A stretch of 64,000 nucleotides of DNA, taken from assembly GCA_021798875.1 (NCBI GenBank), contig JAJZBN010000002.1, positions 82,831 through 146,830 on the forward strand, written 5' to 3'. Positions 321 through 39,409 of this stretch are shown piece by piece. Below the pieces are notes generated by a model that did no database searches, was not told where the DNA came from, and saw only the letters and a program-made list of their open reading frames with translations. Each line of letters starts with the position of its first letter. The first letter of the stretch is position 1. Position numbers and translations under genes: made by a program. The stretch comes from a bacterium (GTDB lineage: Bacteria; SZUA-79; Acidulodesulfobacterales; Acidulodesulfobacteraceae).

Positions 321-360
321 TTAAAAACCTCCGGATAAGTATATTTTTTAAAATTTAACT

Positions 361-2789: not shown

Positions 2790-2819
2790 TATTCCCCTTA
2801 TTTAAAATTTTTACAATTA

Positions 2820-3527: not shown

Positions 3528-3531
3528 ATAT

Positions 3532-7304: not shown

Positions 7305-7343
7305 ATTTTGTTTTTTAATTACCCCTTAAAAATATATATAAAA

Positions 7344-7377
7344 AATTATACAATGTTATATATAATATTGTATAATT
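7344..7377. promoter_or_regulatory. perfect 11-bp inverted repeat (AATTATACAAT-12 nt-ATTGTATAATT) in the phoH / L,D-transpeptidase divergent region; candidate operator
   Basis: Read directly from the sequence. It overlaps several TATAAT-like hexamers. No function is demonstrated, and the background is very AT-rich. Confidence 0.3.
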
Positions 7378-7457
7378 ATAATGACTTAAAAAATTACCCG
7401 CTTATTTCGATTATAACATTATTGTTAAAAAAGTCAAAAATTAACTAATTGCGTCTT

Positions 7458-7494
7458 CCGAATTAAATTCGGGCACTATTGCAAAATGGAACGC
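7458..7494 (+). repeat. possible degenerate copy of the hairpin + CAAAATGGAA element
   Basis: CCGAATT-A-AATTCGG followed by GCACTATTGCAAAATGGAACGC. Compare GGTGCCAGAATT-C-AATTCTGGCACCGTCACAAAATGGAAAAG at 27251-27410 and the copy at 58806-58848. The similarity is partial. Confidence 0.3.
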
Positions 7495-7517
7495 AAAACT
7501 GAAATGGAATAGGTCAA

Positions 7518-11291: not shown

Positions 11292-12371
11292 TTATTTTTT
11301 TAATTCTTCGATTACGGCAAGTCCCATCTCTTTTGTTCCGACAAGTTTTGTTCCAGGAACTTTTGAATAAATATCGGCAGTCCTGTAACCGTTTTTTATT
11401 ACTTTTTCTACGGCTTTATCTATTTTGTCGGCAAGATCGTCCATATCGAAACTATATTTCAGCATCATTGCGACCGATAATATTGCGGCTAAAGGATTTG
11501 CCTTATTCTGTCCTGCAATATCAGGGGCGCTTCCGTGAATAGGCTCATACATACCTTTTTTGCCGTTAAGGCTTGCGGAAGGCAGCATGCCTATAGAACC
11601 GGCTACCATAGAAGATTCGTCGCTCAAAATATCGCCGAACATGTTGGTAGTTACTATAACGTCAAAATTTTTCGGCTGCCTGATTAACTGCATAGAACAG
11701 TTATCGACGTACATATTGGTCAGTTCTATATCCGGATATCCTTTGGCTGTTTCCGCTACTACGTTGCGCCACAATTCCGTGCATTCCAATACGTTTGCTT
11801 TATCCACCGACAACACTTTTTTTCTTCTTTTTCTTGCAATTTCAAAAGCTATTTTTGCTATTCTTTCTATTTCTTTAGTGGTATAAACAAGCGTATTTAC
11901 TCCTTTTTTCTGCCCGTCTTCCAAGTCGAAAACGCCTCTGGGCTGACCGAAATATATACCGCCCGTTAGTTCTCTTACTATCATCATGTCCGTTCCTTGG
12001 ACTATCTCTTTCTTTAAGGGGGAAGCGTCGATAAGTTCGTCGTAAATTTTAGAAGGTCTTAAATTTGCATATAGCCCAAGTTCATATCGCAAAGACAGGA
12101 GAGCTTTTTCCGGTCTCAGTTCAATAGGAAGCGATTCCCATTTATAACCGCCTACAGCTCCAAAAATTACGGCATCGGCATCTTTTGCTATCTTAAGGGT
12201 TTCTTCTGTTAAAGGTTTCCCATATTCGTCGTACGATGCGCCGCCGACTAGACCTTTTTCTATTTCATATCTTACCGAGTGTAAATCAAGTAAAAATTTT
12301 AATACGTTAACGGCTTCTTCGGCAACTTCTGTTCCTATTCCGTCGCCTGCGAAAAGAGCTAATTTTATCAT
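11292..12371 (-). CDS. leuB: 3-isopropylmalate dehydrogenase
   Basis: LFAGDGIG and [10 protein letters not shown] signatures. Lies in the leu cluster. Confidence 0.95.
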
Positions 12372-16633: not shown

Positions 16634-17315
16634 TTATTTTACCGAGTACTGTTTTGCCTGAAAAAACTTTACTTCCAATTTCAACGTAAGGAATAAAACT
16701 TAAAGGCAGATATATATCCAATCTGGAACCAAATTTAATCAAACCGAATCTTTCTCCTGACTTTACGGTATCTCCTTCTTTAATTTTACATACTATGCGT
16801 CTTGCTATAAGGCCGGCTATCTGAACAAACGCTATTTTTCCATTTTTTTCTTTTAAAACTCCGCCCGTATTTAAAATTATCGCATTAAACTCGTTTTCGG
16901 AAGATGCCTTATCTAAGTTTGCGGAAAAAAATTTGCCTTTATTGTAAACTATTTTTTCCACTATTCCCCCAAAAGGAATCCTGTTGACGTGCACGTTAAA
17001 AAGAGACATAAAAATACTAATTTTAAAAACTTCTTCATTTAAAAACCTTTCATCCAAAACTCTCTGTAAAAATATTATTTTACCGTCGGCGGGAGAAACT
17101 ATTTCGGCTTCTTTTAAAACAGAATCCGGCTTTCGTTCAGGGTCCCTGAAAAAATATATGCAGAAAAAAAAGAAAAGGGCTGAAAGCGCAAATAACGAAA
17201 AAAAAATATATTCCAAAATTATATTTTTTGCGTATAAGCCAAATATTAAAAAAATTAGCGAACAGAAAAATGCAACTGATATAAACTGAATACCTTCTTT
17301 CGCTATATATTTCAT
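16617..17315 (-). CDS. psd: phosphatidylserine decarboxylase proenzyme (short Asd-type)
   Basis: Self-cleavage context LIKFGSRLD and an N-terminal TM anchor. Coupled to pssA. Confidence 0.88.
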   Translation of the reverse strand: MKYIAKEGIQFISVAFFCSLIFLIFGLYAKNIILEYIFFSLFALSALFFFFCIYFFRDPERKPDSVLKEAEIVSPADGKIIFLQRVLDERFLNEEVFKISIFMSLFNVHVNRIPFGGIVEKIVYNKGKFFSANLDKASSENEFNAIILNTGGVLKEKNGKIAFVQIAGLIARRIVCKIKEGDTVKSGERFGLIKFGSRLDIYLPLSFIPYVEIGSKVFSGKTVLGKINDSVE

Positions 17316-17368
17316 TTTTTTAATACTTAGGGCAGATATAAGTCTGCCCCGATGTAAAAATTTATGTT

Positions 17369-24784: not shown

Positions 24785-27217
24785 TTACTTCCTTAAAATT
24801 ATTCCTAAACGATTATTCAGTTCGTTAATTAATCCGCCTCTTAATTCATTGACCTCTTCCATAGTAAGCGTTCTGTCGTCGGCAATGGCGTCGTATCTGA
24901 TAAGAAAAGATATTTTACCTTCTTCTATCTGCTTGCCGGTATAAACATCTTCAAGCCTTACGTTTTTAATTAACGACGAATATCCTTTAATTAATTTTTC
25001 TACGGAAGCATACTCTATGCTTTTATCGCATACTATAGAAATGTCCTGTTCAATCTCCGGATATCTATTCGGCGGTATGAAAGTTTTTTTATTCGAGATA
25101 TATTCTTTAATACGGTCCAAATCAAACTCGAACGCAAAAACCTTGCTTTCTATTTTAAATTCGTCTAATATTTCTTTCTTAATTTCGCCGAAAATTCCAA
25201 CTTTAGCTTTTCCTACGGTAATTTCCAACGAAGCATTTTCGTTATAAAAACTTGCCGCAGATGTTTTATCGAAAGAAAATTTTTTTATTCCGGATTCTTT
25301 AAGTATAAATTCGACGATGCCTTTTCCTGTATAAAATTCCGGATCTTGGCTTGTACTCTTAATACCCGTGCATACGCATCCGCATAAAACGTTTTTTTCG
25401 TTAACCGGCATAACGTCGGTCTTCTCTCCTATATAAACTTTTCCTATTTCAAAAATCTTAATATTTTTATATCTTCTGGAATTTTGCTGAACAGATCTGA
25501 GCACATCGGGCATCAAACTTATCCTGAAAAAAGCGTAATCCGCGGAAATAGAATTTTTAAGTTCTAAAACAGAATTTCTGTCTATGGAAGAATTTGCAAC
25601 CGATATATTTATTTCTTTTCCGCCGGTAAGAGACGGAGAAATTATTTCGGTAAATCCCGCATATCTTAACAAATTTCGATACAGCCTGTATGTTTCGAAA
25701 TTTGCGTTTTTTAACGGAGGAGCAAGTAAGCCCAAAGGCAAAGACGATTTTATATTATCGTAACCGTATATTCTTAGAATATCTTCGTAAATATTTACCG
25801 TTTCGCCTATATCCATTCTAAAATAAGGCGGGGAAACCTTAAAAGCGTTATTTTCTTCTAATGAAGGTTCGACATAATACCCTAAGTTGGATAAAACTGT
25901 TTGAGCTTTTTTATTTACCGCCGAATCGCCCGAAAACTCCGATAGAGCGCCAAGGTCTATTTCGTAAGTTTTAGAAGTTTTATCTTTTTTTATATCGTAA
26001 GCATAGCAACTAATTTCGACGCCGCTCTCATATTTACGGATAAGTTGAAGAAAACGTTTTACGGCATATATACTTAAAGCAGGACTTATTCCTTTTTCGA
26101 AACGCGTCGAAGCATCCGTTCTTAAAGAAAGAGTTCTTGAAGTCTTTCTTATTTTAGACATATGAAAATTAGCCGATTCTACGATAATATCGGTAGTACC
26201 TTCATCTATTTCGCTGTTAGCTGAACCCATTATTCCTGCTATAGCGATAATTTTATTTTTATCGGCTATAACTATATCTTCATCCGATAATTTCCTTTCT
26301 TTTCCGTCCAAAGTAACGGCGGTTTCATCTTTTAACGCAAACCGCACGTTAATTGCGTTTCCGTCGAGTTTTGAAGCATCGAATGCATGCATCGGCTGTG
26401 AAGTTTCCATCATTACGATATTGGTTAAATCGACGATATTGTTGATAGGTCTTATTCCGCTTTTCATTAACTTATTTTTTATATGTAAATCGGATTCTTT
26501 TATTTTTAAACCCGATATTTTTACCGCTATATAAGACGGCGCTATTTCTCCGTCGGCTATATTAACGCTTAATTCGTTTATATCGGAAGCATATTTTTCG
26601 CCGGCGCTTATATTAACGCCTTCGTATATTTCGGGTAAAACCAACTTTTTATCTAATATTGCCGCTAACTCATACGCAAATCCCATAATTCCGAAAAGAT
26701 CGGGTCTGTTCGGCTCAAGATCGAATTCTAAAACCGTATCGTCGAGTTCAAAAATATCGTATGCGGACATACCCGTTTCTAAGAGCGGAAATTTCGCTAT
26801 CGAATCTATATTTAACTGCAGACCTAAATCTTTTTCCGAACAGAAGGCGGCTTCGGAAACCACGCCGAATATAGCCTTGTCCCTGATTTTTAATCCGTGG
26901 TCGAATACCGTCCCTTTTGTAGCTATCAGCGGTTTATCTCCAACTTTTACTTTAAGCCCCTCTTTAGTAAACACTATCCTTTTCATCCCTAAAGTTTCTC
27001 CCGCGTAAACTTCGGCAATGCCGAACTTATCGTTGGAAGGATGCGGTGCAATGCTTTTTATTTCGCCGAGTACGATGTTTTGAAACGATTTTTTTTGCGA
27101 ATAATAAGGAAATATTTTTTCTACCTCCATAGTTCTGCCGTTCAAAAGAGAGGCTATTTTTTCGGGCTCGGTTTTAAAATAAACAAATTCTTTAAGCCAG
27201 TTTAAGCTTACTTTCAA
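24785..27217 (-). CDS. pheT: phenylalanine--tRNA ligase beta subunit
   Basis: N-terminal tRNA-binding domain, B3/4 and B5 domains (FDLEPNRPDL) and a C-terminal anticodon-binding domain. TTG start at 27217 is preceded by CCGGAGG. Confidence 0.93.
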   Translation of the reverse strand: MKVSLNWLKEFVYFKTEPEKIASLLNGRTMEVEKIFPYYSQKKSFQNIVLGEIKSIAPHPSNDKFGIAEVYAGETLGMKRIVFTKEGLKVKVGDKPLIATKGTVFDHGLKIRDKAIFGVVSEAAFCSEKDLGLQLNIDSIAKFPLLETGMSAYDIFELDDTVLEFDLEPNRPDLFGIMGFAYELAAILDKKLVLPEIYEGVNISAGEKYASDINELSVNIADGEIAPSYIAVKISGLKIKESDLHIKNKLMKSGIRPINNIVDLTNIVMMETSQPMHAFDASKLDGNAINVRFALKDETAVTLDGKERKLSDEDIVIADKNKIIAIAGIMGSANSEIDEGTTDIIVESANFHMSKIRKTSRTLSLRTDASTRFEKGISPALSIYAVKRFLQLIRKYESGVEISCYAYDIKKDKTSKTYEIDLGALSEFSGDSAVNKKAQTVLSNLGYYVEPSLEENNAFKVSPPYFRMDIGETVNIYEDILRIYGYDNIKSSLPLGLLAPPLKNANFETYRLYRNLLRYAGFTEIISPSLTGGKEINISVANSSIDRNSVLELKNSISADYAFFRISLMPDVLRSVQQNSRRYKNIKIFEIGKVYIGEKTDVMPVNEKNVLCGCVCTGIKSTSQDPEFYTGKGIVEFILKESGIKKFSFDKTSAASFYNENASLEITVGKAKVGIFGEIKKEILDEFKIESKVFAFEFDLDRIKEYISNKKTFIPPNRYPEIEQDISIVCDKSIEYASVEKLIKGYSSLIKNVRLEDVYTGKQIEEGKISFLIRYDAIADDRTLTMEEVNELRGGLINELNNRLGIILRK

Positions 27218-27219
27218 TT

Positions 27220-27375
27220 TTAATTCCTCCGGTTATTTATTTTAAATTTCTTTTCCATTTTGTTACGGTGCCAGAATTGAATTCCGGCCTTTTCCATTTT
27301 GTTACGGTGCCAGAATTGAATTCCGGCCTTTTCCATTTTGTTACGGTGCCAGAATTGAATTCCGGCCTTTTCCAT
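27220..27375 (-). other. repeat-encoded 51-codon upstream ORF (MEKAGIQFWHRNK x3 + MEKKFKINNRRN); translation unproven
   Basis: The 39-bp unit equals 13 codons, and each unit carries an in-frame ATG. The frame stays open through three units and ends at TAA 27222-27220, 2 nt before the pheT TTG. No SD precedes the ATGs. Confidence 0.25.
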
Positions 27376-27410
27376 TTTGTGACGGTGCCAGAATTGAATT
27401 CTGGCACCGT
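27251..27410 (-). repeat. tandem array, 4 x 39 bp, each unit a hairpin followed by CAAAATGGAAAAG (minus-strand reading)
   Basis: Units lie at 27251-27289, 27290-27328, 27329-27367 and 27368-27408. Plus-strand unit is TTTTCCATTTTGTTACGGTGCCAGAATTGAATTCCGGCC. The last copy completes a perfect 14-bp-arm palindrome ACGGTGCCAGAATT-G-AATTCTGGCACCGT (27382-27410). Confidence 0.95.
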
Positions 27411-27412: not shown

Positions 27413-28408
27413 CTATATAATGTCGAACAGTCCGGGCTGGATCAGGCGGTCGTCTTCGGCAAATTTTTCCGCGTAAAGTTTATTGCGGACGTCATGCATT
27501 TCTTCTAAAGACGCGCCTAAATCCGGCACAAAATCTCCGCGCAGATTTATCCCGAAAACCCCGACTTGCCCGTAAAGCGATTTCAATCCTTCATTGTCAT
27601 ATGAATTCATTAAATTTAAGTTATATTCCGGAATAAAAACCGGACGTTTTTGCTTGATAGAAAAACCGCAAGTTTTCATAGTTCCGCTTTTTAAAGGCGA
27701 AGATAAAGCAAAAGTTCCAAGCGAAGAACCGCTCTGCAATCTGTCTCTCGCCACTAAATTTTTTGAAGATACAGGTTCGTGCGGCGAAAGTTCCGAAACC
27801 AGCGCTCCTCCGTTAAATATTATTTCGTTATACAAATCCCTGTTCTCCGGTGGATATACCGAAGAAAGAAGTCCCGAACCAAGAAACGCTACGGTATATC
27901 CGTTGTTTTTTAATGCAGTCCTGTGGGCCGCCGAATCTATCCCTAAAGCAAGTCCGCTAATTATAGCATAACCGGAAGAACATAGTTCCGCGGTTATATC
28001 CTCTGCCAGTTTAACCGCATATTCAGGCGGTTTTCTCTGCCCTATAACCGCCGCCGCTAATTTTAAGTCCTCTTTTAAAGCCCCTTTATAATAAAGAACT
28101 AAAGGCTTATTTTTAATTTTGCGTAAATTTGCCGGATATAAAGAAGATTTAAAAGTTATTATTTTAACGCCGTTTTTAGAAGCCTCGTCAATTTCTTTTA
28201 TGGCATCGAAAAAAGCCGTCTTTATAATTCTTTGGTTTATTAATATCTTAACGTAATCGATTTTTAATCCTGCTTTAATAAAATCGGACTTATCGGCGTT
28301 AAAAATTTCGCATGGACTTCCGAAGGCGTTGATTAAAAACATTATATGCCTGTTTTGCAGACCTTTGATTTTTTTAAGAGCTAAAGTGCATATAATATCG
28401 TCCATCAA
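27413..28408 (-). CDS. dprA: DprA/Smf-family (Rossmann/SLOG) DNA-processing-like protein
   Basis: ISGLALGIDSAAHRTAL, FLGSGL..VYPPEN and ARDRLQSG (canonical RNRIISG) contexts. Its start overlaps the stop of the upstream PRTase gene (TGATG). Confidence 0.75.
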   Translation of the reverse strand: MMDDIICTLALKKIKGLQNRHIMFLINAFGSPCEIFNADKSDFIKAGLKIDYVKILINQRIIKTAFFDAIKEIDEASKNGVKIITFKSSLYPANLRKIKNKPLVLYYKGALKEDLKLAAAVIGQRKPPEYAVKLAEDITAELCSSGYAIISGLALGIDSAAHRTALKNNGYTVAFLGSGLLSSVYPPENRDLYNEIIFNGGALVSELSPHEPVSSKNLVARDRLQSGSSLGTFALSSPLKSGTMKTCGFSIKQKRPVFIPEYNLNLMNSYDNEGLKSLYGQVGVFGINLRGDFVPDLGASLEEMHDVRNKLYAEKFAEDDRLIQPGLFDII

Positions 28409-29010
28409 ATATCCCCGCCCGCAAAATTTACAATATCTGCTTCCATGGGCGTTTTACCGAGAAATATTCCCGTTACTGCGCTTGCCCCTTCTTTTAATAA
28501 CGCGTTTTTTATAAGTTTAAAAGTCGTCCCCGTAGTTATAATATCGTCGAAAATTATTATTTTTTTTGATTTATAATTATATTTATATTCTAACGATATA
28601 TTATTCGAATCCTTTTTTTTTAAATCTATATTATTTTCTATATGTCCGGGCTTATGTCCTTTAATGCACACTATAGCCTTTTCATAGGTATCGATAGTTC
28701 CCAGGGCCGCAAGATACAAGCATACCTGAGCATTAGGATAAAAGTCTAAATAGGAATTGCTCGGCGGAACCGGAAGTATCAAATCGTAAAAATAAAAATA
28801 ATTATATATAATATTGTTTATTATTTTTATATAAAAAGCTATAGCACCGGAATCTCCTTTTTTATATTTTAAAATTAAGTCTGAATATTTCAAGCTATTA
28901 GCTAATTTGTCTTGATTGGCGGCAATTTTTTTATTTTTGGGAATATAATAATCTAAATAAAAATATTCTCCTCTGCCTCCGGTTTTTATATTTATATTAC
29001 TTTGAATCAT
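28405..29010 (-). CDS. ComF-like phosphoribosyltransferase-domain protein lacking the N-terminal zinc finger
   Basis: PRPP-binding loop IIIFDDIITTGTT and ILPVPPS. Only 2 Cys in 201 aa, so there are no CxxC pairs. Confidence 0.7.
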   Translation of the reverse strand: MIQSNINIKTGGRGEYFYLDYYIPKNKKIAANQDKLANSLKYSDLILKYKKGDSGAIAFYIKIINNIIYNYFYFYDLILPVPPSNSYLDFYPNAQVCLYLAALGTIDTYEKAIVCIKGHKPGHIENNIDLKKKDSNNISLEYKYNYKSKKIIIFDDIITTGTTFKLIKNALLKEGASAVTGIFLGKTPMEADIVNFAGGDI

Positions 29011-29087
29011 TATCCGAATATATTATTATTAATAATCCTTATAGTTGATTTTTTAAAATTGAGTCGCTAACGAACCGACAATTTAAT

Positions 29088-31154
29088 ATGATAAATCTTT
29101 ATCTTAAAAATTTCAATTTTAATATATATAACTCCATAGGAATACTGCTTTCTTCGAAAAACGAATGCAGGCTTTTTATTAAAAACATCGAAAATCTAAA
29201 TGTAAACTGCAATTTTTTTACTTTCGAAGATTTAAAAAAAAATTTTAATATCGACGGCGCAATTGAATCGCCGTTAAGTTTTCCTTTTAAAAATATCGGA
29301 AACGTTTTGTCGGCAAAAGCTGTTTTTTTAAGCGGCATAACGGTAAATTCGCTTTCGGATGCCGCCTTATTAAACGCAGTGTGCGACTTTACGTTAAACA
29401 ACGGCGTTATTTTCGGCATAGTAACGGAAACGGTTTTTAATACTGTAGAAAATTTAACTAATTTATACGGCAATCCTCGCATCCAAAAAAACTATTATGA
29501 AAATTTAATAATCGATATTTATAAATCGCGTTTAAAAATGCTTTTAAAAACAAGAATTTTAGCTTCCGAAAAAAACGAAGGATACACCGAATCTATGGAC
29601 TTGTTTATCCGTAAAATGAAAACTATAGGTTTTAATCCTAAAATTAATAATACAAATTTAATTTTTTTAAATTCAAAAAAATTCGCCGTAAATATTAACA
29701 TAGCGCCGCCGCCGCAATATATATCGCCGGACGAAAAAACTGCGGATTCCGTTTCTCGAAATGAAATTGCTTTAAATACAAATTTATACGACATGTACTT
29801 TTACCAAAAAGAGCTTTTTAATAAAATTAAAATATTTTTGAATACCGCTAAAAATTTATATGAAGGAACGGTATTAAAAAGAAACGGTGGAACGACTAAA
29901 AAAAAGATGTCATCTTCGGAACTCAGCAAAATTCAAAAAATGTCGATAGAAGAAATAAATAAGGCACAGCTTATAATAGCAGGCGCAGGAGCAGGCAAAA
30001 CTAAAGTATTAGTCGATAAGTTCTTATATTTATTAAATTTTTTTTCCGCGGGTTCGATACTTGTCCTGACTTTTACCAATAACGCCGTATCCGAAATAAA
30101 AAACAGGGCAGCAAAAAAATTAAATATTAACGGATATAATAAATTTATCAACGATAAAATTTTAAATATTTCAACCTACCACAGTTTTTTCTATTCGATA
30201 ATAAAAGAATTTTATAGCGAGCTCGGCTATAAATCCGCTCCTTCCATTTCAGACGAAAAGATTGAAGCGTCCGTCTCGAATAATAAATACGCAGACGAAT
30301 TATCTATATCCTACGAAGAAATTATTTTAAACATAATCAAACTGTTTAAAAACGACTATATAGCAAACGAAATATCCTCAAGGTTTAAATATATATTAGT
30401 CGATGAATATCAGGATTTAGATTTTTTAAGCGATTATTTAATAAAAAAAATAGATGCGGGCAAGGGCAAAGTTATGTATGCCGGAGACGATGACCAATCG
30501 ATATACGGATTTAACGGGGGAGATTTTTTTAATATCCTGACGTTCGACCTGTTTTTTCCTTCAGGCAAAGTATTCGTTTTCCAAAATAATTACAGGTCAA
30601 ACCCGAGTGTCGTCGAATTTTGCAATTCAATATTGAATAACATAAAATTCGGGTATCCGAAAAAATTAATTGCAAAAAACAATACAATAATGGATGCGGC
30701 GGTCGATATCATTGGTTTTAAAAATAAAAGCGAAGAAAAAAATTTTATAGCAAAAAGAGCGGTGGATTATTTTGAGACCGGAAAGAAAGTTGCGGTTTTA
30801 GTAAGAACTAAAAGAGAGAAAGCTAAATTTCTGGCTATTCCAAATTTAGCCGATTTTTGCCAAGTATCGACCATCCATGCCGGCAAAGGTTTGGAGTACG
30901 ATATCGTATTTATTTCAGGAGTGTCTAAAGACAATATATCCCGCTTAAAAAACGCTAATTTAACCGGAGGCGGCAGGCCGTCAGATTTCAAAATTCATCC
31001 TTTCGTAAATTTTTTTAAAACAAGTTATGCATTTAAAATAACCGATATATTAATCGACGACGAGATAAGGCTTTTTTACGTTGCGGCTTCAAGAGCTAAA
31101 GAAAAACTTTATATAACGTATTCCGGAGAAATTTCGGATTTTTTAAAACGCTAA
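29088..31154 (+). CDS. compact SF1 (UvrD/Rep-like) helicase with an uncharacterised ~290-aa N-terminal domain
   Basis: Motifs I IAGAGAGKTKVL, Ia LVLTFTNNA, II VDEYQDLD, III YAGDDDQSIYGFNGG, IV NYRSNP, V TIHAGKGLEYD and VI FYVAASRAKEKLY all lie within residues ~295-688. I recognise no motif in residues 1-290. Confidence 0.8.
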   Translation: MINLYLKNFNFNIYNSIGILLSSKNECRLFIKNIENLNVNCNFFTFEDLKKNFNIDGAIESPLSFPFKNIGNVLSAKAVFLSGITVNSLSDAALLNAVCDFTLNNGVIFGIVTETVFNTVENLTNLYGNPRIQKNYYENLIIDIYKSRLKMLLKTRILASEKNEGYTESMDLFIRKMKTIGFNPKINNTNLIFLNSKKFAVNINIAPPPQYISPDEKTADSVSRNEIALNTNLYDMYFYQKELFNKIKIFLNTAKNLYEGTVLKRNGGTTKKKMSSSELSKIQKMSIEEINKAQLIIAGAGAGKTKVLVDKFLYLLNFFSAGSILVLTFTNNAVSEIKNRAAKKLNINGYNKFINDKILNISTYHSFFYSIIKEFYSELGYKSAPSISDEKIEASVSNNKYADELSISYEEIILNIIKLFKNDYIANEISSRFKYILVDEYQDLDFLSDYLIKKIDAGKGKVMYAGDDDQSIYGFNGGDFFNILTFDLFFPSGKVFVFQNNYRSNPSVVEFCNSILNNIKFGYPKKLIAKNNTIMDAAVDIIGFKNKSEEKNFIAKRAVDYFETGKKVAVLVRTKREKAKFLAIPNLADFCQVSTIHAGKGLEYDIVFISGVSKDNISRLKNANLTGGGRPSDFKIHPFVNFFKTSYAFKITDILIDDEIRLFYVAASRAKEKLYITYSGEISDFLKR

Positions 31155-32185
31155 AACTGGTTTAAGATATCGAGGCTGCCCTGATATAAAAGCCTCAAGT
31201 CGTTAATATTATATTTAAGCATAACTATTCTGTCGAATCCCATTCCAAACGCAAAACCTTTATACTCATGCGGGTCTATGCCGGCATATTTAAAAACGTT
31301 AGGATGCACCATTCCGCACGGAATTACTTCTATCCAGCCTGTATTTTTACATACTCCGCAGCCCCTTCCGCCGCAGAATACGCATTCTATATCAAGATCT
31401 AAACCGGGTTCTACGAAAGGATAAAAAGCAGGCCTGAAACGCGTTTTTCTTGCGCCGAGCATATGCTTTACCGTCTCTTCCAATATTCCTTTTAAATCCG
31501 AAAGTTTAACGTTTTTATCTACGAAAAGTCCTTCCATTTGATTAAACATAAAAAGATGCGTCGCATCCACGGCTTCATATCTGTAACATCTGCCGGGAGC
31601 TATTATTCTTAAAGGCAGCTCTTTTTTTTCGAGGATTCGCGCCTGAACGCTCGACGTATGCGTTCTCGGCACTAAACCGTTCAGCAGATAAAAAGTATCC
31701 CATACATCTCTGGCGGGATGGTCCGCCGGAATATTTAACGCATCGAAATTATAATAAGTAGTTTCTATTTCCGGACCTTCGACTGTCTCGAAACCCATAG
31801 ACGTAAAAAAATCGGCCGCTTCTTCCAGTACAGCGGTTATCGGGTGCTTATGAAATCTTTCTATGTGTTTTCCTGGTATGGTAAGGTCTAATTTATATTC
31901 TGCGGAAAATTTTTTATTTTCGTCTAAAGAAAGTTTGGATTTTTTTGCATTATAAACCGATTCTATCTCGCTTTTAACTTCGTTCGATTTTTTTCCTATA
32001 ATTTTTTTTTCTTCTATTGAATATGAACCGATATTATGTAAAATTTCCGTAAGCCTGCCCTTCTTTCCCATGAAAGCCTTAAAGATGCCGTCCAATTCGC
32101 TTAAATCGCCGGCGGAATCTAAAGACCTTTTTGCTTCTTCGGATATTTTATTTATAGTTTCTATAATTTCTAAGTTTTTATCCAT
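31151..32185 (-). CDS. pheS: phenylalanine--tRNA ligase alpha subunit
   Basis: Class II motifs ADHPARDVWDTFY, GRCYRYE and GFAFGMGFDRI, plus the common CxxC..CxxC insertion. Confidence 0.95.
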   Translation of the reverse strand: MDKNLEIIETINKISEEAKRSLDSAGDLSELDGIFKAFMGKKGRLTEILHNIGSYSIEEKKIIGKKSNEVKSEIESVYNAKKSKLSLDENKKFSAEYKLDLTIPGKHIERFHKHPITAVLEEAADFFTSMGFETVEGPEIETTYYNFDALNIPADHPARDVWDTFYLLNGLVPRTHTSSVQARILEKKELPLRIIAPGRCYRYEAVDATHLFMFNQMEGLFVDKNVKLSDLKGILEETVKHMLGARKTRFRPAFYPFVEPGLDLDIECVFCGGRGCGVCKNTGWIEVIPCGMVHPNVFKYAGIDPHEYKGFAFGMGFDRIVMLKYNINDLRLLYQGSLDILNQF

Positions 32186-32230: not shown

Positions 32231-35200
32231 TTATCCTACTACTTTATTTCTTCCGAATTCTTTTGCCCTGTATAAATTATCGTCCGCAATTTTCAGCAAA
32301 CCGTTTAATATTTCGTCCGTATCGTAATTTATGTCCGTAATTTTCCCGCCTTTATCTTGAAAAAACTGTTCTATGTCCGAAACTCCTACGGATATGGTAA
32401 TATTTAAATTTAAATTGTCTTTAGGCGTATAAATTTTATTTTCTATATAAACTCTTAATTTTTCCATTAAATTCACAGCTTTTTCTTTACTTGTATCCGG
32501 TAAAACTACGACAAATTCATCGCCGCCGTACCTTGTTATTATGTCCTGTTTTCTGAGCAAAACGCTTTTTAAGTCGCCGGTAAATTCGACCAGCATTATG
32601 TCGCCTATATTGTGCCCGTAATTATCGTTTATATTTTTAAATTTATCGACGTCCAATATTGCAAAAGAAAGATCCGTCGAATTTCTTGACGCCCTTGCTA
32701 TTTCTCTTTTTACGAACTCGTACATAAATCTTCTGTTATGTATTCCGGTTAAAGAATCCGTAAGCGCCAGTTCCCTGTTCGTTTCTATTAATATCAGTTT
32801 TGCAAAAACCGGAGATGCTATGTTTATTATCTCTTTTACCAAGTCGATAATTTCTTGGGTAAAGAAATACTTATCTTCTGAATCTATGGAAATAGTGCCT
32901 GCTAATTCATCGCTTATTTTCAGCGGAAAGCACATATAACTGCCGGCAGTACCTCTAAATTCGCAATTATTTACGATGTCGTCCTGACCGTTATTTTTTT
33001 CGTTTTTTAAAAGTTTGCAGTTCGACAGATAGTCTTCGTAATCGATATTTGCCGTTTTCAGTATAATTTTATCGGCATTTTCGGAATTGTCCGTCTCCGG
33101 CGGCGAAACTTTTTTCCTGTCGTAAATCAAAGAGGTGACGGTTTTTTTATTGGCGGCATCGAATATGTTAATATGCAGGGAATCCACCATGCCGCCGCAC
33201 TGTTTTTTTATAGAACATAAACCTTCCGCAAACGTTTTTATGGCATATTCAAGAGTAAAAACCATGGATAGTTTATATGCCAGATTGTTTAGCAGATTTA
33301 GTCTTTTTATATTATTTTTTAGATTAGTTACGTCTCCGAATACAAGAAGCCTTATAACGCTTTTATCTTTAGTCGTAAACAGATTAGACTTCATATTTAA
33401 TATAATGCCGTTTTTAAGATTAATTTCTACGCTTTCCAGAGTAGCGGTGTATCTGTTGTTTATGTATGTTTCAAATACTGTTTTCGCAAAATTTTTATCT
33501 TCAAATGCATCCTTTATTTTTTCGTAAAATTCATTTAAGTCTAACGGCGTCGAAAACTTTCCTATATTAAACGCCCGGGCAAAATAATCGTTGTAAAGAT
33601 TAACCGTCTTATCGGTTAAATTAATAGAAACGATACCAAACTCCGCCATCTTGTTTATTAAGTTTTCCCTGTTTTCTAAAAGTTCTACCGAAGAATCCAG
33701 CTTTTCAAAAAGCGTATTAATTTCAAAATATTCCGCTAAAAAGTTTATGCCGTTTTTAAAAAATTCTAAATCTTCGTCGTAAAACGACGCTTTTCTTTTA
33801 ATTACGCCGGTTATAGCCAGATATCTTCTGTTTTCCGTTCCCTCGAAGGAATAAAGAATTATATCTTCTACGCCTTTATTTTTAAAATATTCCGTCGCGG
33901 AATCATCTTTTTGATAATTATACGCTTCAAGCCTGTTTTCAATTATACGTTTTTTAACGAACTCGGTAGGAACCGGCTCAATAGTGCTTTTGCTCAAGTT
34001 TAAAACCCACTTATTAGAAAATATGCCTTTCATAATTTCGCTTTTAATGGTATCAAAGACGATAAATTCCACAAAATCGGTCTGCATATCATCTTCTATG
34101 TCGTTTAAAAATTTTTGCAGAAACTCTTCTCCGCTTAATTCCTGTTTGTTTCTATTGCCTGATTCGCTGGAATAAACTGAATTTCCGTTAACGTTAGCTT
34201 TGTTTTCATCGGTTATTTCTTGTCTTCTTGTCATTGAAAACAATAGCCTCTCGGCCATTTTAGATAAAAGCGATTGTCTTCTCAAATTTTTCAGGTAAGT
34301 TATCAGGTATGCGGCATAATTTGCAAGATTAAAAATTGCGCCGCCTTTAACATCGTCGAAAGCGCCTTTCTTGCTTGAATAAATTGCCATTATGCCGATA
34401 ACGCGGCCATGTATTATTAAAGGAAACGAGCCTGCCGACAAAAAATTAAATTCTAAAAGTTTGGTTTTATAATGGGCGGGTATAGTCGTATCATTTTCTA
34501 CGTCGTTTATTACGGCGTAATTTTGCAATTTTATAGCTTTTGCCGTCAAATTTTGCAAATATTCACGATTGTCCAAATTTTCGCCGTATTGAAGAATTAA
34601 ATTTTTCACGTAATTAAAATCGTTATTATAAGCGTTTATTATCTTCACTTCTTTTTTGTCTTCGTCTAAAACTCCGAACCAAGCGTAACTATACCCCATT
34701 CTTTCGACTATCAGGTCAATAAGTTTAAACGTAAGCGAATTAAAATCGTCCTTTTCGGAAACTGCTTTGGAAAAATCGTTTATGCTGGACACTATAAGGC
34801 TGTTTTCTTTCTGCTTTAGCGCTATCGAGTTGTTTAAAGCGGTTATGGCTTTAGCGAAATCGTAAAATTCGTTTTCCTTGTTTTTATATTTGTCTGCGAT
34901 ATTTAATTCCTGCGGATTGTTTGGGTCTATATTTCTTATGCTTTTCAAAAGGTCGTAGAAAGGCTCCGAAAATCTTTTATTTATTAAAATAAAAATCAGT
35001 ATAGTTAAAGCATATAGCGCCATAAAAAAAATTATAGACGCATATAGTTTAGAAAGATGCCTGAGCCATGTATATTCCTTTATGCCTGCACCGAATACCC
35101 CTATAATTTTACCGTCGTAATTTTTTATCGGCACGTTATATACATAAAAAGGCGTGCCGTTCACCTTTAACGATGCATAAACGCTTATGCCCTTTTCTAA

Positions 35201-35884
35201 AACCGGAATCTGTTTTTTCGTCAGATTCTGCCCCACACCCTCATATTCATTATTTTTAACAAAAGAAATAGCAGACCTTTCGGAACCGTAATAAATACCG
35301 AGATTTGAATGTATACGTCTTTTTATTCGGATATTTTTTAAATAATTACTGATTACATGCTTATTTAGAATAATTAAATAACCGTTATTTTTATGCAGCA
35401 GGCGGTAAACCACCGTAATATTTATTAGTCTGTCGGACTTATCTCTTCCGAAGCCCGTAAATATGTGACGGTTTTTTGCAGATATTATTCTTTTCAATCT
35501 ATCGTAATATTGCTTAGATATTTTAAGTATTTCCGGATATTTTTTGTATTCAAATTTTTTAACGTAATCTATTTTTCCGCTTTCTATTTTTACTAAGATT
35601 ATGTCGGATATTCTTTTATAATCTACCGTCTTTCTGATGAACCCGCTTTTAAAATTATGGGCTATAATATCGTTGGCTTTTTCAAGCATATAATTTCTTT
35701 CGCTTAAAAAAGCCATAGTGCCGGACATTAAGTTCGATTTTAACTCTTCTTTTAACGATTTTCGACTGTATAGCGCAATATAATGGAGAGCTATAAATAT
35801 TCCGACCGAAAAAATAATAATATTCGACAGGATGAATAGGAAGTAGATTTTAAATTTTATAGAATTAACATTTATTTTCGGCAT
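32231..35884 (-). CDS. large multi-domain sensor diguanylate cyclase (TM-bounded extracytoplasmic domain, several GAF/PAS-like modules, C-terminal GGDEF)
   Basis: TM helices lie near residues 15-35 and 285-305. The C-terminus carries RYGGDEFVVV with an RKQD I-site 5 residues upstream and the NINDNYGHNIGD context. Confidence 0.85.
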   Translation of the reverse strand: MPKINVNSIKFKIYFLFILSNIIIFSVGIFIALHYIALYSRKSLKEELKSNLMSGTMAFLSERNYMLEKANDIIAHNFKSGFIRKTVDYKRISDIILVKIESGKIDYVKKFEYKKYPEILKISKQYYDRLKRIISAKNRHIFTGFGRDKSDRLINITVVYRLLHKNNGYLIILNKHVISNYLKNIRIKRRIHSNLGIYYGSERSAISFVKNNEYEGVGQNLTKKQIPVLEKGISVYASLKVNGTPFYVYNVPIKNYDGKIIGVFGAGIKEYTWLRHLSKLYASIIFFMALYALTILIFILINKRFSEPFYDLLKSIRNIDPNNPQELNIADKYKNKENEFYDFAKAITALNNSIALKQKENSLIVSSINDFSKAVSEKDDFNSLTFKLIDLIVERMGYSYAWFGVLDEDKKEVKIINAYNNDFNYVKNLILQYGENLDNREYLQNLTAKAIKLQNYAVINDVENDTTIPAHYKTKLLEFNFLSAGSFPLIIHGRVIGIMAIYSSKKGAFDDVKGGAIFNLANYAAYLITYLKNLRRQSLLSKMAERLLFSMTRRQEITDENKANVNGNSVYSSESGNRNKQELSGEEFLQKFLNDIEDDMQTDFVEFIVFDTIKSEIMKGIFSNKWVLNLSKSTIEPVPTEFVKKRIIENRLEAYNYQKDDSATEYFKNKGVEDIILYSFEGTENRRYLAITGVIKRKASFYDEDLEFFKNGINFLAEYFEINTLFEKLDSSVELLENRENLINKMAEFGIVSINLTDKTVNLYNDYFARAFNIGKFSTPLDLNEFYEKIKDAFEDKNFAKTVFETYINNRYTATLESVEINLKNGIILNMKSNLFTTKDKSVIRLLVFGDVTNLKNNIKRLNLLNNLAYKLSMVFTLEYAIKTFAEGLCSIKKQCGGMVDSLHINIFDAANKKTVTSLIYDRKKVSPPETDNSENADKIILKTANIDYEDYLSNCKLLKNEKNNGQDDIVNNCEFRGTAGSYMCFPLKISDELAGTISIDSEDKYFFTQEIIDLVKEIINIASPVFAKLILIETNRELALTDSLTGIHNRRFMYEFVKREIARASRNSTDLSFAILDVDKFKNINDNYGHNIGDIMLVEFTGDLKSVLLRKQDIITRYGGDEFVVVLPDTSKEKAVNLMEKLRVYIENKIYTPKDNLNLNITISVGVSDIEQFFQDKGGKITDINYDTDEILNGLLKIADDNLYRAKEFGRNKVVG

Positions 35885-37864: not shown

Positions 37865-39409
37865 TTATTTTTTAGCGGCTTTTTTAGAAACTTGCTTCGT
37901 TTTTTTCGCTTTAGCCGGTTTTGCGGCATTAGCGGGAGTTCCCCATGGCAAAGATGCAGGAGGAGTCCATTTTTTATGCTCTTTTGCTAAATGCTGATTA
38001 TATGCTATGATGTTTAAAGAATTTAAATAATGGATAACCTCTTTTGCTTGCGCCGTCGATATCGGACATCCGTTAACATCTTTCATTTGATGAATAACGA
38101 GATGTTGCCAAGTGCCGTATGCTTTTCCGTTATACCTTTCCACTCTGTTTAACGTATGGCATATTACGCACTTATCGTGCAAAGCGCCGAACCCTTTTTT
38201 AACGGGCCATGGATAAACAACCGGCGGAACGTATTTAGTTCCGTTTAGGTTCATAGTCTGATAAATAATCCTGTTTGTACCCCTTGCGGCGATTTTCATA
38301 TATCCCATGACGGGAACGTTAACCGCAACGCAAAGTCCACCTACTATTAAAAAAATCTGAGGAAATTTAGAAATATTTCCAAATTTAAAATTAGGCGTAA
38401 GGTCTTTTAGGTAATAACCGAGAACTAAAAAACCTGTTAAAAAAAGCCCTGATAAAGACAAATACTTGACAGGCTGCATATTTCCAAGCATCCCCATGGT
38501 TGTCGGAAGCATTCCAAAGCCTAAAGAAACAAGCCCGACTATTATAAGAAAAACTATAAGTCCAACAGATACCGTCGATTTGCTTTTATCTCTTCCGTTA
38601 ATAAGTTTCCACAGCATGTATATGTACTGCAATATCAAAGATGCTCCAAGCGTACCCAAAAATGTGTACATTATCCACTGATATTTTCCGAGCATTATCC
38701 TATTAAAGCCACTACTAGACGTTGCCCTGAAATGCTTAAACCATCCGAAATATACTATCGGATACGTAACCAGAAACATAACGGTTATTATGCTGGCAAA
38801 CGAACCTAACCAGTCGTAAAATTCTTTGTCTTCCTGTTTCGAAGAGATTATATATCTTATTCCAGCCCATATAGCAAGCAGTGCTCCGGCAAGGGCAAAA
38901 ATTTCGATATTTTTTTCTATGATTAATAGCAGAACCATAGGTGTTCTAATAGCAGTCTGCGGTGTCGGCCCCATAGTATAGCTTTCTGAAATGGTATAAA
39001 AAACGTCGGAAGTAAAACCTGCCAAGAAAGCAATTATACCGACAAATACGTTCCACCCCTGATGCTTTCCCTCGCCTTTTCTGTCAAAGCCTGCATAATA
39101 TATCGCGCCGAGAACGAGAAACGCAAGTAAAAAATCCATAGATAAAGCAATTACTCCAGGCTGCAATTTATTCATAAGTATCCAAAAATTCGGAATTCCG
39201 TTTCTAAGGAGACTCAAAAAATAAAAATAAATAATAGTCTGTATGGTGCCTATAACTAAGGCGCACATAATCAGCGGTTTTGCAAGCCTGAAGTATCTGT
39301 CTTCTTTTTTAAATATCCCGATATACTGGGATATAAAGGCAATCGCCATAAATCCTAGCGCTAGCCTGTTAATAAATAGATTTATTATATCTATAACACC
39401 TAAATTCAT
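37865..39409 (-). CDS. polytopic (~10-12 TM) membrane protein with a C-terminal mono-haem c-type cytochrome domain
   Basis: A single CVICH haem-c motif lies near residue 415, with candidate Met ligand HQMKD downstream, then a Lys/Ala-rich tail. GAGGAG RBS. Sits directly downstream of cytochrome b. Confidence 0.7.
   Translation of the reverse strand: MNLGVIDIINLFINRLALGFMAIAFISQYIGIFKKEDRYFRLAKPLIMCALVIGTIQTIIYFYFLSLLRNGIPNFWILMNKLQPGVIALSMDFLLAFLVLGAIYYAGFDRKGEGKHQGWNVFVGIIAFLAGFTSDVFYTISESYTMGPTPQTAIRTPMVLLLIIEKNIEIFALAGALLAIWAGIRYIISSKQEDKEFYDWLGSFASIITVMFLVTYPIVYFGWFKHFRATSSSGFNRIMLGKYQWIMYTFLGTLGASLILQYIYMLWKLINGRDKSKSTVSVGLIVFLIIVGLVSLGFGMLPTTMGMLGNMQPVKYLSLSGLFLTGFLVLGYYLKDLTPNFKFGNISKFPQIFLIVGGLCVAVNVPVMGYMKIAARGTNRIIYQTMNLNGTKYVPPVVYPWPVKKGFGALHDKCVICHTLNRVERYNGKAYGTWQHLVIHQMKDVNGCPISTAQAKEVIHYLNSLNIIAYNQHLAKEHKKWTPPASLPWGTPANAAKPAKAKKTKQVSKKAAKK

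Follow-up and report, generated by a model that had tools for sequence, protein, structure and literature searches.

A conserved PRTase, DprA-like and helicase gene set between pheS and pheT in Candidatus Acidulodesulfobacteriota

In Ca. Acidulodesulfobacteriota (SZUA-79; Acidulodesulfobacterium and Acididesulfobacter), the genes for the two subunits of Phe-tRNA synthetase are separated by a cassette that encodes a PRTase, a DprA-like protein and a UvrD-like helicase and, judging from its gene order and divergence, is an ancient, vertically inherited part of the core genome. The explanation that we favor, with moderate confidence, is that the cassette is a resident module for single-stranded (ss) DNA processing and recombination mediation.

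Locus layout, conservation and selection

The 64-kb stretch of DNA analyzed here (hereinafter, the window) originates from a Ca. Acidulodesulfobacterium MAG. The genes are arranged in the order pheT, DprA-like, PRTase, divergent helicase, pheS (Table 1); pheT and pheS are both on the minus strand, 3.93 kb apart, in agreement with the first-pass annotation. On identical public gene calls, the Pfam domains of the flanking genes are B3_4/B5/tRNA_synthFbeta/FDX-ACB (pheT) and Phe_tRNA-synt_N/tRNA-synt_2d (pheS). The PRTase stop codon overlaps the DprA-like start codon (TGATG), as noticed previously, and the two genes are translationally coupled; the true start of the DprA-like gene is the ATG at 28405, as in the public gene call, so the protein is one residue shorter than the 331 aa initially reported. 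Because only 18–67 bp separate the DprA-like gene from pheT in most relatives, pheT and the PRTase-DprA unit probably share a transcript. The helicase stop codon overlaps that of pheS convergently.

Table 1. Features of the pheS–pheT region (positions in the window)
Feature	Coordinates	Strand	Basis and remarks
pheT (Phe-tRNA synthetase beta subunit)	24785..27217	-	ORF; downstream flank of the cassette
Tandem repeat, 39-bp unit x4	27250..27405	.	TRF score 298, 98% matches
DprA-family protein, 330 aa	27413..28405	-	PF02481, 176.6 bits
Compact ComF/ShosT-superfamily PRTase, 201 aa	28405..29010	-	ORF, profile and structure matches
AT-rich divergent intergenic region, 77 bp	29011..29087	.	between PRTase and helicase
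Helicase, whole gene, 688 aa	29088..31154	+	divergent from PRTase
Helicase N-terminal domain, ~278 aa	29088..29921	+	no Pfam match; AF2 model
Compact UvrD/PcrA/Rep-like SF1 helicase core, ~410 aa	29922..31154	+	PF00580, 147 bits; PF13361, 86 bits
pheS (Phe-tRNA synthetase alpha subunit)	31151..32185	-	ORF; upstream flank of the cassette

The 39-bp repeat array is REP/terminator-like and terminates in a perfect palindrome with 12-bp arms (27384–27408), directly after the DprA-like stop codon; the same palindrome recurs at 58807–58831, with none expected by chance. The array is a recent strain-level addition outside the conserved cassette. The 77-bp spacer should accommodate the promoters of both the helicase gene and the PRTase-DprA(-pheT) unit; it contains promoter-like hexamers on both strands, but no more of them than chance predicts for the region. 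When 27 orthologous spacers were compared, no operator motif proved common to different clades.

In 31 of 31 GTDB species genomes (some contigs are truncated) and in 3 marine contigs, the genes follow one another as pheS, helicase (opposite strand), PRTase, DprA, pheT, rseP, tsaB, and this order is kept in every examined relative from the two genera, down to PRTase identities of 42–44%. Divergence of the DprA-like protein tracks that of PheT (identity pairs of 81/77, 69/68, 60/61 and 57/56%). The dN/dS of the DprA-like gene (0.09–0.12) equals that of pheT and pheS, those of the PRTase and helicase genes (0.21–0.29) equal that of tsaB, and dS is alike between genes; with dN/dS matching that of housekeeping neighbors, the cassette carries no signal of diversifying selection. 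All neighbors in the window are housekeeping genes (Lnt, PhoH, MurJ, LeuA, Ilv, UvrA, Mfd, PPDK, GlyS), and no tRNA, integrase, mobility or defense genes were found in the window around the cassette. At one related locus (L012), true toxin-antitoxin (TA) modules occur beyond the cassette, within the variable flanking region.

The fixed gene order, the housekeeping-like divergence and dN/dS and the core-genome context rule out a recent insertion or mobile defense island, and the earlier proposal of an insertion into the pheST operon holds only for an ancient event. The same pattern bears on a competing reading that we consider less likely, namely that the genes comprise a fixed ShosTA/PsyrTA-like TA or abortive-infection system, in which the PRTase would be a PRPP-dependent toxin, the DprA-like protein a RecA-recruiting type IV antitoxin and the helicase a third component. 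Known defense and TA systems are patchy and located in variable regions, whereas this cassette occupies a single site across two genera and the marine members, evolves under the same constraint as its housekeeping neighbors and probably shares a transcript with the essential pheT. Conservation of the order across the whole lineage had been named in the first-pass annotation as an argument against its own TA/defense proposal, and such conservation is what we find.

The GC contrast that had been reported between the PRTase and helicase genes and the flanks (about 22% versus 53%) was overstated. The GC content is 29.7% in the PRTase gene, 29.6–33.1% in the helicase gene and 39.3% in the DprA-like gene, against 36–43% in the flanks and 36.2% in the window; individual 60-nt lines span 13–58% in all genes, so those sampled were not representative. 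The deficit resides in codon positions 1 and 2, not in GC3, with K/N/I/Y/F making up 44–48%, and is no sign of recent transfer because it is repeated, again in GC1/GC2, in the PRTase and helicase genes of all orthologous loci.

The PRTase and DprA-like proteins

The PRTase consists of an N-terminal beta-hairpin followed by the PRT domain. Its PRPP loop is IIIFDDIITTGTT, and D155, D156, T159, T160 and G161 of this loop are invariant throughout the family alignment. The protein contains exactly two cysteines (C97 and C115), both in the PRT domain, and none at the N-terminus; a zinc finger is accordingly absent, there being no Zn-binding Cys in the N-terminal hairpin, which bears out the initial description of a PRTase-only protein. 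The match to PF00156 is sub-threshold (21.7 bits, cutoff 26.3), the best NCBIfam match is comF (TIGR00201), aligned over nearly the full model at 45 bits versus a cutoff of 233, and the PADLOC model for ShosT yields 62 bits (1.6e-17). In a Foldseek search with the AF2 model (pLDDT 75), the structure comparison that had been suggested earlier, ShosT (8zvb) does come out on top, but tied with Helicobacter pylori ComF (7p0h).

The DprA-like protein comprises an N-terminal region of ~76 aa, the Rossmann DprA domain (77–265) and a lineage-specific C-terminal tail of ~65 aa; the DprA winged-helix (WH) domain is absent. It scores 162 bits against dprA (TIGR00732, cutoff 191), 206 bits (1.8e-61) against the PADLOC ShosA model and 87 bits against PsyrA. 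Thus, the PADLOC check proposed at the outset returns strong ShosA and ShosT matches, but that to ShosA is non-discriminating because E. coli Smf scores much alike (195 bits); on the PsyrA model, Smf reaches 92 bits. Compared with PDB sequences, the protein is about equally distant from ShosA (89 bits) and canonical DprA (84 bits; references for DprA/Smf: TIGR00732, PDB 3maj, 3uqz and 4ljk). It scores higher with ShosA than with TIGR00732, as do two HAD-PRTase-paired proteins, whereas three canonical DprAs do not. In a neighbor-joining (NJ) point-estimate tree, the family adjoins the canonical DprA clade, and it joins no ShosA-type clade with support.

Adjacency of PRTase and DprA genes with an overlap is the hallmark of TA systems of the ShosTA/PsyrTA type, is not known to be a trait of canonical comF and dprA, and counts against the resident-module reading. 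Both pairings named in the first-pass annotation are correct: in ShosTA and in PsyrTA (RqlHI) alike, the toxin has a PRTase domain and the antitoxin is DprA-like (PMC11961720; PMC12961424), the PRTase of PsyrT being fused to a RecQ-like helicase. Several features are shared with ShosTA (reference: E. coli APEC O1, type IV TA/anti-phage; PDB 8zva-8zvd, 9vzo). In both cases, the PRTase retains an intact PRPP loop and is encoded next to a DprA-like protein that consists, as in ShosA, of an N-terminal region and a Rossmann domain and has no winged helix; the genes share one orientation and are closely linked; the PADLOC models match both proteins; and ShosT ranks with the top structural matches for the PRTase model. 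The PADLOC call for the pair would probably be ShosTA, and the ShosT score exceeds the 46 and 27 bits obtained for two genuine HAD-PRTase proteins; together with the ShosA score above that for dprA and the gene overlap within a two-gene operon, this call would favor the TA system over a resident module. So would the nearest out-of-lineage relatives of the PRTase, which are short Zn-less PRTases, frequently with a DprA-like gene directly after; one set, PRT-PRT-DprA-HAD, sits in a prophage lysis-cassette hotspot. However, a search of sequenced phages and plasmids detected no relatives.

There are also differences from ShosTA. ShosT (424 aa) carries a HAD/pyrophosphatase-like domain at its N-terminus, and its PRT domain, 260 aa long, has elongated loops; the PRTase described here has neither feature, and E. 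coli ShosT matches the PRTase family profile at the PRPP loop only (12.7 bits). ShosTA is found in defense islands and prophages, whereas the cassette is fixed in a core operon lineage-wide and includes an additional helicase. PsyrTA, a known triad of helicase, PRTase and DprA-like activities, resembles the cassette in this combination, and under the TA reading, the UvrD-like helicase would be a sensor or effector analogous to the fused RecQ domain of PsyrT. Yet PsyrT is an SF2 helicase with a fused C-terminal PRTase, whereas the helicase here is a separate, divergent gene of the SF1 UvrD-like type with a novel N-terminal domain; the PsyrT model yields just 23.6 bits, and the PsyrA model matches no better than it does E. 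coli Smf.

The opposite possibility, which we regard as improbable, is that these are divergent but canonical transformation genes, with the PRTase as ComFC, the DprA-like protein as the sole DprA and the helicase in place of ComFA, the motor of Gram-positive bacteria. H. pylori ComFC (191 aa; PDB 7p0h), likewise a compact PRT protein of ~190–200 aa with an N-terminal beta-hairpin, has a nearly identical PRPP loop (DDIITTGTTL versus DDIITTGTTF) and, as noted, is a tied top structural match. In natural transformation, ComFC has known physical links to DprA and to an ATPase/helicase partner, and pneumococcal ComFA, ComFC and DprA interact; the lineage possesses type IV pilus genes and recA, and K04096 (dprA) is listed for 4/4 published MAGs. 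The comF match and the position of the DprA-like family by the canonical clade in the NJ tree also fit. In H. pylori, where ComFC and DprA interact, cytoplasmic ssDNA handling does not require the zinc finger of ComFC, but the 4-Cys zinc finger is needed for DNA internalization and membrane/ComEC association (PMC9005727). The PRTase lacks this finger, the KOs for comEC (K02238), comEA (K02237) and comFC (K02242) are absent from the published KO table (4 MAGs, both genera), and none of these genes is present in the 64-kb window; the absence of comEC from the KO table also agrees with the TA reading, as do the missing zinc finger and WH domain. Furthermore, the helicase is not a DEAD-box protein, unlike ComFA, and the DprA-like gene, although it encodes the PF02481 Rossmann domain, lies outside the dprA-topA context. 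Canonical ComFC/DprA identity is rejected given the scores under the NCBIfam cutoffs, which had been proposed as the yardstick, and the lack of the zinc finger and the WH domain. Of the original contention that the genes serve TA/defense rather than competence, the non-canonical status of both proteins stands, whereas the ShosT HAD domain and the PsyrT fusion are missing and the DprA-like protein cannot be assigned to a ShosA clade.

The helicase and its association with the PRTase-DprA pair

As originally described, the divergent gene encodes a compact UvrD-like helicase with an unassignable N-terminus. It shares with UvrD/PcrA/Rep (SF1A) the Walker A motif (AGAGAGKT), the DEYQD motif and the UvrD-helicase and UvrD_C domains, and best matches PcrA, UvrD and Rep (111 bits with PcrA 1pjr), but is far below all equivalog cutoffs (165 bits for pcrA, NCBIfam cutoff 911). 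The accessory subdomains are reduced, given that the core spans only ~410 aa. The unique N-terminal ~278 aa, without a match in the Pfam search, are predicted from the AF2 model (pLDDT 78.5) to form a lineage-specific alpha/beta domain that shows weak likeness to the DnaC/IstB AAA+ fold and lacks a Walker A motif; Foldseek against PDB retrieved nothing at E<=1e-3 (best, 6qem_G, 2.6e-3). This domain is kept in all members of the helicase family, but none of the 83 loci scanned outside the lineage encodes it. Gabija, with its helicase GajB, was considered and rejected because no GajA-type nuclease adjoins the gene.

The helicase family with this N-terminal domain is confined to the lineage and adjoins the PRTase-DprA pair at every fetched locus, and it is this conserved adjacency that suggests a functional link. 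The whole rseP-tsaB-ilvD block is syntenic as well and, therefore, conservation of gene order by itself is weak evidence of such a link. The three genes might be functionally unrelated neighbors held together by low rearrangement, with a lineage-specific repair helicase next to an independent PRTase-DprA pair; the PRTase-DprA modules outside the lineage all lack this helicase. We nevertheless view this as quite improbable: rearrangements among relatives have altered the sequence upstream of pheS (GGDEF, Pyr_redox, DoxDA, TA genes) but left the trio intact, the short head-to-head helicase/PRTase spacer in Acidulodesulfobacterium (23–78 bp) suggests shared regulation, and PRTase-DprA modules repeatedly have a helicase of another family nearby or fused to them (PsyrT; loci L091 and L057).

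Proposed role of the cassette

If the cassette is a resident ssDNA-processing module, the DprA-like protein would, as a dimer, bind ssDNA and load RecA, by analogy with DprA and with ShosA, which also binds ssDNA and RecA (PMC12961424). The PRTase would bind PRPP or nucleotides via its intact PRPP loop and act as a partner of DprA in the cytoplasmic, Zn-finger-independent manner of H. pylori ComFC, and the helicase would make or clear the ssDNA substrate. We infer that the module as a whole resides in the cytoplasm, mediates recombination and is not toxic. The cassette is a lineage-fixed variant of the PRTase-DprA(-helicase) theme that is shared with ComFC-DprA-ComFA and with ShosTA/PsyrTA, and is a member of none of these systems.

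Gene content and layout of the pheS-pheT interval

The two genes for the phenylalanyl-tRNA synthetase subunits are separated by a cassette of three genes, which encode a DprA-like protein, a 201-aa PRTase and a UvrD-like helicase. ORF calls confirm the gene positions and strands given in the first-pass annotation as well as the overlap of the PRTase stop codon with the ATG of the DprA-like gene (TGATG); from that ATG, the DprA-like protein comprises 330 aa, in agreement with the public gene record, rather than 331 aa as initially counted.

Genes of the pheS-pheT interval, with positions in the window
Gene	Positions	Strand	Basis
pheT	24785-27217	-	ORF
DprA-like gene	27413-28405	-	ORF and PF02481
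PRTase	28405-29010	-	ORF
Helicase	29088-31154	+	ORF and UvrD domains
pheS	31151-32185	-	ORF

The start codons of the helicase and PRTase genes face each other at a distance of 77 bp. No conserved operator was detected across the orthologous helicase/PRTase spacers, and scans for consensus promoters and terminators yielded nothing above chance. In most relatives, only 18-67 bp lie between the end of the DprA-like gene and pheT, which suggests a PRTase-DprA-pheT transcript. In this genome, the gap from the DprA-like stop to the pheT start is widened by four tandem copies of a 39-bp unit (98% identical; 27250-27405). With the last copy, a perfect palindrome becomes complete, its two arms of 12 bp each reading GGTGCCAGAATT-G-AATTCTGGCACC. 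Given that the gap is 18-67 bp in the more distant relatives and 140-276 bp in the closest ones, this repeat with its palindrome looks like a REP- or terminator-like element that recently expanded at this site; a near-identical palindrome is present between convergent ORFs at 58807-58831. At the other end of the cassette, the helicase (+) and pheS (-) genes are convergent and their stop regions share 4 bp (31151-31154), leaving no room for a terminator, so that pheS transcription would enter the helicase gene antisense.

The UvrD-helicase, UvrD_C and AAA_19 domains of Pfam cover residues ~280-688 of the helicase (PF00580, 147 bits; PF13361, 86 bits) and include the Walker A motif AGAGAGKT and a DEYQD motif within an unusually compact core. 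The closest families are PcrA, UvrD and Rep, yet the protein scores 140-165 bits against equivalog cutoffs of 911-1144 and does not qualify as an orthologue of any of them. The GajB models of the Gabija system score 143 bits, the level of a generic UvrD match, and whereas GajB adjoins the OLD-family nuclease GajA, the helicase gene in the window adjoins the PRTase gene and pheS, with no GajA-like ORF. The N-terminus, to which the first-pass annotation could assign no domain, is indeed blank in Pfam over the first ~278 residues, and this region is conserved throughout the helicase family. The predicted model of this domain is an alpha/beta structure (pLDDT 78.5) without a Walker A motif, for which a structure search returned no significant match and a weak, non-significant likeness to DnaC/IstB-type AAA+ proteins. 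In one orthologous locus, L005 (GCA_021811985.1, 2672-4777), the helicase is represented by two ORFs of 415 and 263 aa, whereas the near-identical L006 has a single gene of 696 aa; either a frameshift has made a pseudogene of it or the assembly is wrong at this point.

Conservation, selection and genomic setting

The first-pass annotation considered the cassette a possible ShosTA/PsyrTA-like toxin-antitoxin or defence module inserted between pheS and pheT. The comparison of pheST synteny, which that annotation itself had named as a test of the proposal, points away from a mobile defence insert: the order pheS, helicase (opposite strand), PRTase, DprA, pheT, rseP, tsaB, 77-aa ORF and ilvD recurs in every context examined, including Ca. 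Acididesulfobacter. A scan in which each GTDB species was represented by a single genome picked up 31 genomes, every one a member of this lineage with a single locus, and tblastn showed the same order in 31 of 31 as far as each contig extends; it is also found in three marine-sediment contigs. In place of the accessory, patchy distribution in defence islands or mobile elements that is typical of ShosTA, the cassette has a single site with housekeeping neighbours. Upstream of pheS, the genes vary among relatives (GGDEF, Pyr_redox or DoxDA), so the surroundings rearrange but the cassette does not. In the window, the gene directly upstream of pheS encodes a 1217-aa GAF/GGDEF protein (32231-35884, minus strand) that has an equivalent in the close relative L002 and is replaced by Pyr_redox or DoxDA genes in more distant relatives, which marks the boundary of conserved synteny. 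In L012 (GCA_054608985.1), an Acididesulfobacter-like locus, the variable region upstream of pheS, just beyond the conserved cassette, contains genuine toxin-antitoxin genes (MazE-PIN, DUF2281-PemK and an NTase pair; 11541-12164 and 16791-17359), in contrast to the fixed cassette.

The PRTase belongs to a small family confined to one lineage: an indexed search yielded 29 clusters, and in a set of 1.84 billion representatives no more than three 50%-identity clusters fell below 1e-30. The named sources are Ca. Acidulodesulfobacterium or "Deltaproteobacteria bacterium", and tblastn against sequenced phages and plasmids detected no relatives. The same restriction to the lineage applies to the helicase with its N-terminal domain, for which scores fall from 320 bits within the family to 155 bits beyond it. 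The identity of the cassette genes to their orthologues decays in step with that of the neighbours (81/77, 69/68, 60/61, 61/61, 57/56 and 55/56% for the amino acid sequences of DprA and pheT, respectively), with the PRTase and the helicase behaving like tsaB. The dN/dS values computed against three close relatives follow the same division, namely 0.09-0.12 for DprA, 0.09-0.12 for pheT and 0.06-0.11 for pheS, compared to 0.21-0.29 for the PRTase, 0.21-0.24 for the helicase and 0.18-0.27 for tsaB, and dS is alike across the cassette and neighbour genes.

The compositional contrast initially put at 22% versus 53% GC is overstated: by gene, GC content is 29.7% for the PRTase, 29.6-33.1% for the helicase and 39.3% for DprA, against 36-43% in the flanking genes and 36.2% in the window, and single 60-nt lines range from 13 to 58% everywhere. 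The low GC of the PRTase and helicase genes is present at every orthologous locus and resides in codon positions 1 and 2 (44-48% K/N/I/Y/F), not in GC3, and was therefore rejected as a sign of recent horizontal transfer.

The remainder of the window encodes core metabolism and repair proteins (Lnt, PhoH, 7TM-HD, MurJ, LeuA, IlvBNCD, UvrA, Mfd, PPDK, GlyS). These 64 kb lack tRNA, integrase and defence genes as well as further copies of dprA, comF or the helicase, and Rfam and tRNA scans gave no match. Within a housekeeping stretch where annotation is otherwise good, a 514-aa ORF (37865-39409, minus strand) matches no Pfam family at E<=1e-5. Overall, the cassette behaves like a resident of an essential operon that evolves under housekeeping-level selection in a phylum-level lineage.

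Relationships to competence and defence proteins

Pairs of PRTase and DprA-like genes are at present assigned either to competence (ComFC, DprA) or to toxin-antitoxin systems directed against phages (ShosTA, PsyrTA). The PRTase in the window contains the PRPP loop FDDIITTGTT, in which D155, T159, T160 and G161 are invariant among 18 family members and D156 occurs in 90% of these or more; the orthologues range from 177 to 240 aa, and the Pfam Pribosyltran match is below the threshold (21.7 bits). As the first-pass annotation had noticed, the protein has two cysteines only (C97 and C115), both in the PRT domain, and no conserved cysteine occurs in the first 90 residues across the 18 family members. 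Thus, although its compact layout resembles that of ComFC, the PRTase is devoid of the 4-Cys zinc finger that is the defining feature of ComFC. In Helicobacter pylori, DNA internalisation and membrane association depend on this finger, whereas ssDNA handling in the cytoplasm does not (PMC9005727). The comF model TIGR00201 matches over positions 44-186 of 190 with 45.2 bits, compared to a cutoff of 233.55.

In the DprA-like protein, ~76 aa precede the Rossmann domain (PF02481, DNA_processg_A; residues 77-265, 176.6 bits against a cutoff of 29.6), which is followed by a lineage-specific C-terminal tail. Canonical DprA has a winged helix (WH) domain and a dprA-topA context; the window protein has no match to PF17782 (DprA_WH), and its gene is associated with pheS and pheT. 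The TIGR00732 score of 162.2 bits is below the equivalog cutoff of 191.15, canonical controls scoring 265-296. Judged by these sequence features, the pair is not canonical ComFC/DprA, and on this point the first-pass annotation holds. A dprA-topA contig (P0355) considered as the lineage's second, canonical dprA belongs to another lineage (48% GC). The KO table for four Acidulodesulfobacterales MAGs from both genera (Tan et al., 2019, Table S3), effectively a presence/absence record and therefore mute on dprA copy number, includes dprA (K04096), recA, uvrD and type IV pilus genes and lacks comEA (K02237), comEC (K02238) and comFC; ComEC is also absent from the window. This pattern suggests that the lineage keeps a DprA-family protein without a DNA-import channel. 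Divergent canonical competence genes, to which the ComFC-like layout and the pilus genes could be attributed, are improbable given the missing zinc finger and WH domain.

Both PADLOC models that bear on a ShosTA assignment match the pair (ShosA, 206 bits; ShosT, 62 bits), but the former does not discriminate, because the housekeeping Smf of E. coli scores 195 bits and two canonical dprA-type proteins score 229-243 bits on the same model, so these matches were rejected as proof of ShosTA. The layout of the DprA-like protein also resembles that of ShosA, which consists of SAM and Rossmann domains and has no winged helix. Its ShosA score exceeds its TIGR00732 score, as in two proteins (P0343, which adjoins a type I R-M system, and P0332) whose genes precede HAD-PRTase genes of ShosT architecture, whereas three canonical DprAs display the reverse pattern. 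This pattern favours the ShosA side; a fixed, still functional ShosTA/PsyrTA-like toxin-antitoxin or abortive-infection system is an unlikely though sizeable alternative. The score pattern finds no backing in an NJ tree with bootstrapping that was built from the Rossmann core and included verified ShosA, canonical DprAs and the external module partners described below: the family is monophyletic in 100 of 100 replicates, has no sister group in more than ~30%, and is equidistant from the WH (1.159) and non-WH (1.149) classes.

On the PRTase side, the shared trait is the PRTase domain with a predicted functional PRPP loop (D331/D332 are essential in ShosT). ShosT (424 aa) has an N-terminal HAD/pyrophosphatase-like domain (residues 1-164) and an enlarged PRT domain, whereas the 201-aa PRTase matches no HAD model of Pfam or NCBIfam, and none of the loci with listed gene calls includes a HAD gene; genuine HAD-PRTase partners were seen in the comparison loci L044 and L045. 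In PsyrT, a RecQ-like SF2 helicase carries the PRTase as a C-terminal fusion, as opposed to separate genes on opposite strands and an SF1 UvrD-like helicase in the window, and the PsyrT model matches the PRPP region only (23.6 bits). Of the ShosTA/PsyrTA traits compared, the PRPP loop and the DprA-like partner are present, and the HAD domain, the RecQ fusion and the patchy distribution are missing. In a Foldseek search, ShosT (8zvb) and H. pylori ComF (7p0h) share the top rank (TM 0.48-0.49), a tie by which structure was discarded as a separator of the two families. When the family profile was run against PDB sequences, E. coli ShosT matched at the PRPP loop only (12.7 bits) and ComFC was absent from the top 60. 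In L044 (JGI 3300063018, 1-8289), a DprA-like gene and a gene for a 412-aa HAD-PRTase of ShosT-like architecture adjoin genes for RecA_N-domain, DUF6504, DnaE-type polymerase and SRAP proteins, which puts a ShosTA-like pair beside a mutasome-like cassette.

Among 93 distant PRTase relatives (55-77 bits), the comF model matches 88 and the ShosT model all 93. The top 49 include 27 short Zn-less proteins, 12 N-terminal fusions, 6 ComF-like proteins with a Zn finger and 4 C-terminal fusions; near their N-terminus, the short ones have the motifs Y-x-x-DY-x-PK and FK-x-GD in common with the window PRTase, and the gene of the nearest (P0156) is followed by a DprA-like gene with a stop/start overlap. 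In a metagenome scan with a 7-sequence alignment as the query, the best-scoring external PRTases are DprA-linked (L055-57/59, L061, L067, L091, L124) and lower-scoring short ones are mostly solo; the lineage's helicase was found at none of these loci. The DprA partners rank 76-101 of 101 in closeness to the window DprA-like protein and so provide no evidence for a joint origin of the window's two genes from a module of this type, and co-inheritance was dropped as a supported reading. Mere adjacency of unrelated genes is quite improbable as well. One of the metagenomic loci, L057 (PPYE01232858.1, 6530-9245), encodes two PRTases (203 and 197 aa), a DprA-like protein (329 aa) and a HAD hydrolase (166 aa) immediately after prophage genes for tail, holin and amidase proteins. 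It looks like a ShosTA variant that has the two domains of ShosT as separate genes and occupies a hotspot of phage defence; the same PRT-PRT-DprA core is present in L055, L056 and L059.

Possible function and evolutionary significance

The locus fits neither the competence nor the ShosTA/PsyrTA reading: the layout is ComFC-like without a zinc finger in a lineage that apparently has no ComEC, and the ShosTA profiles match in the absence of the second ShosT domain. The most likely interpretation, held with roughly even confidence, is an ancient, vertically inherited core cassette on the PRTase-DprA(-helicase) theme that serves as a resident cytoplasmic module for ssDNA/RecA processing. The composition, domains, conservation, selection and context of the cassette are observed directly; the biochemical roles are inferred by analogy with work on ComFC, DprA and ShosA (PMC9005727, PMC12663950, PMC11961720, PMC12961424). 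Accordingly worded as predictions, the DprA-like protein would bind ssDNA and load RecA, the Zn-less PRTase would be its PRPP- or nucleotide-binding partner, and the helicase would supply or remove ssDNA. The locus itself shows no new mechanism.

A more speculative and distinctly less probable scenario is that a ShosTA/PsyrTA-type toxin-antitoxin triad, with an SF1 helicase carrying a previously undescribed N-terminal domain as the third component, was captured into the core genome before the lineage diversified and has stayed between pheS and pheT ever since, its transcription coupled to that of pheT. If so, the cassette would be either an abortive-infection system that has become permanently fixed or a living intermediate, in the latter case showing how ComFC-DprA-helicase ssDNA complexes and PRTase/DprA defence systems evolve into one another.

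For annotation, caution is warranted because the ShosA profile cannot separate housekeeping DprA from ShosA, as the E. coli Smf control demonstrates, and profile-based defence finders probably over-call ShosTA here. The locus also offers a tractable case for a cytoplasmic role of a ComF-type PRTase with DprA apart from DNA uptake, and adds an SF1 helicase with an uncharacterised N-terminal domain to the recurring helicase-PRTase-DprA triad. The cassette is a plausible bridge in the evolution between competence-type and defence-type PRTase-DprA pairs.
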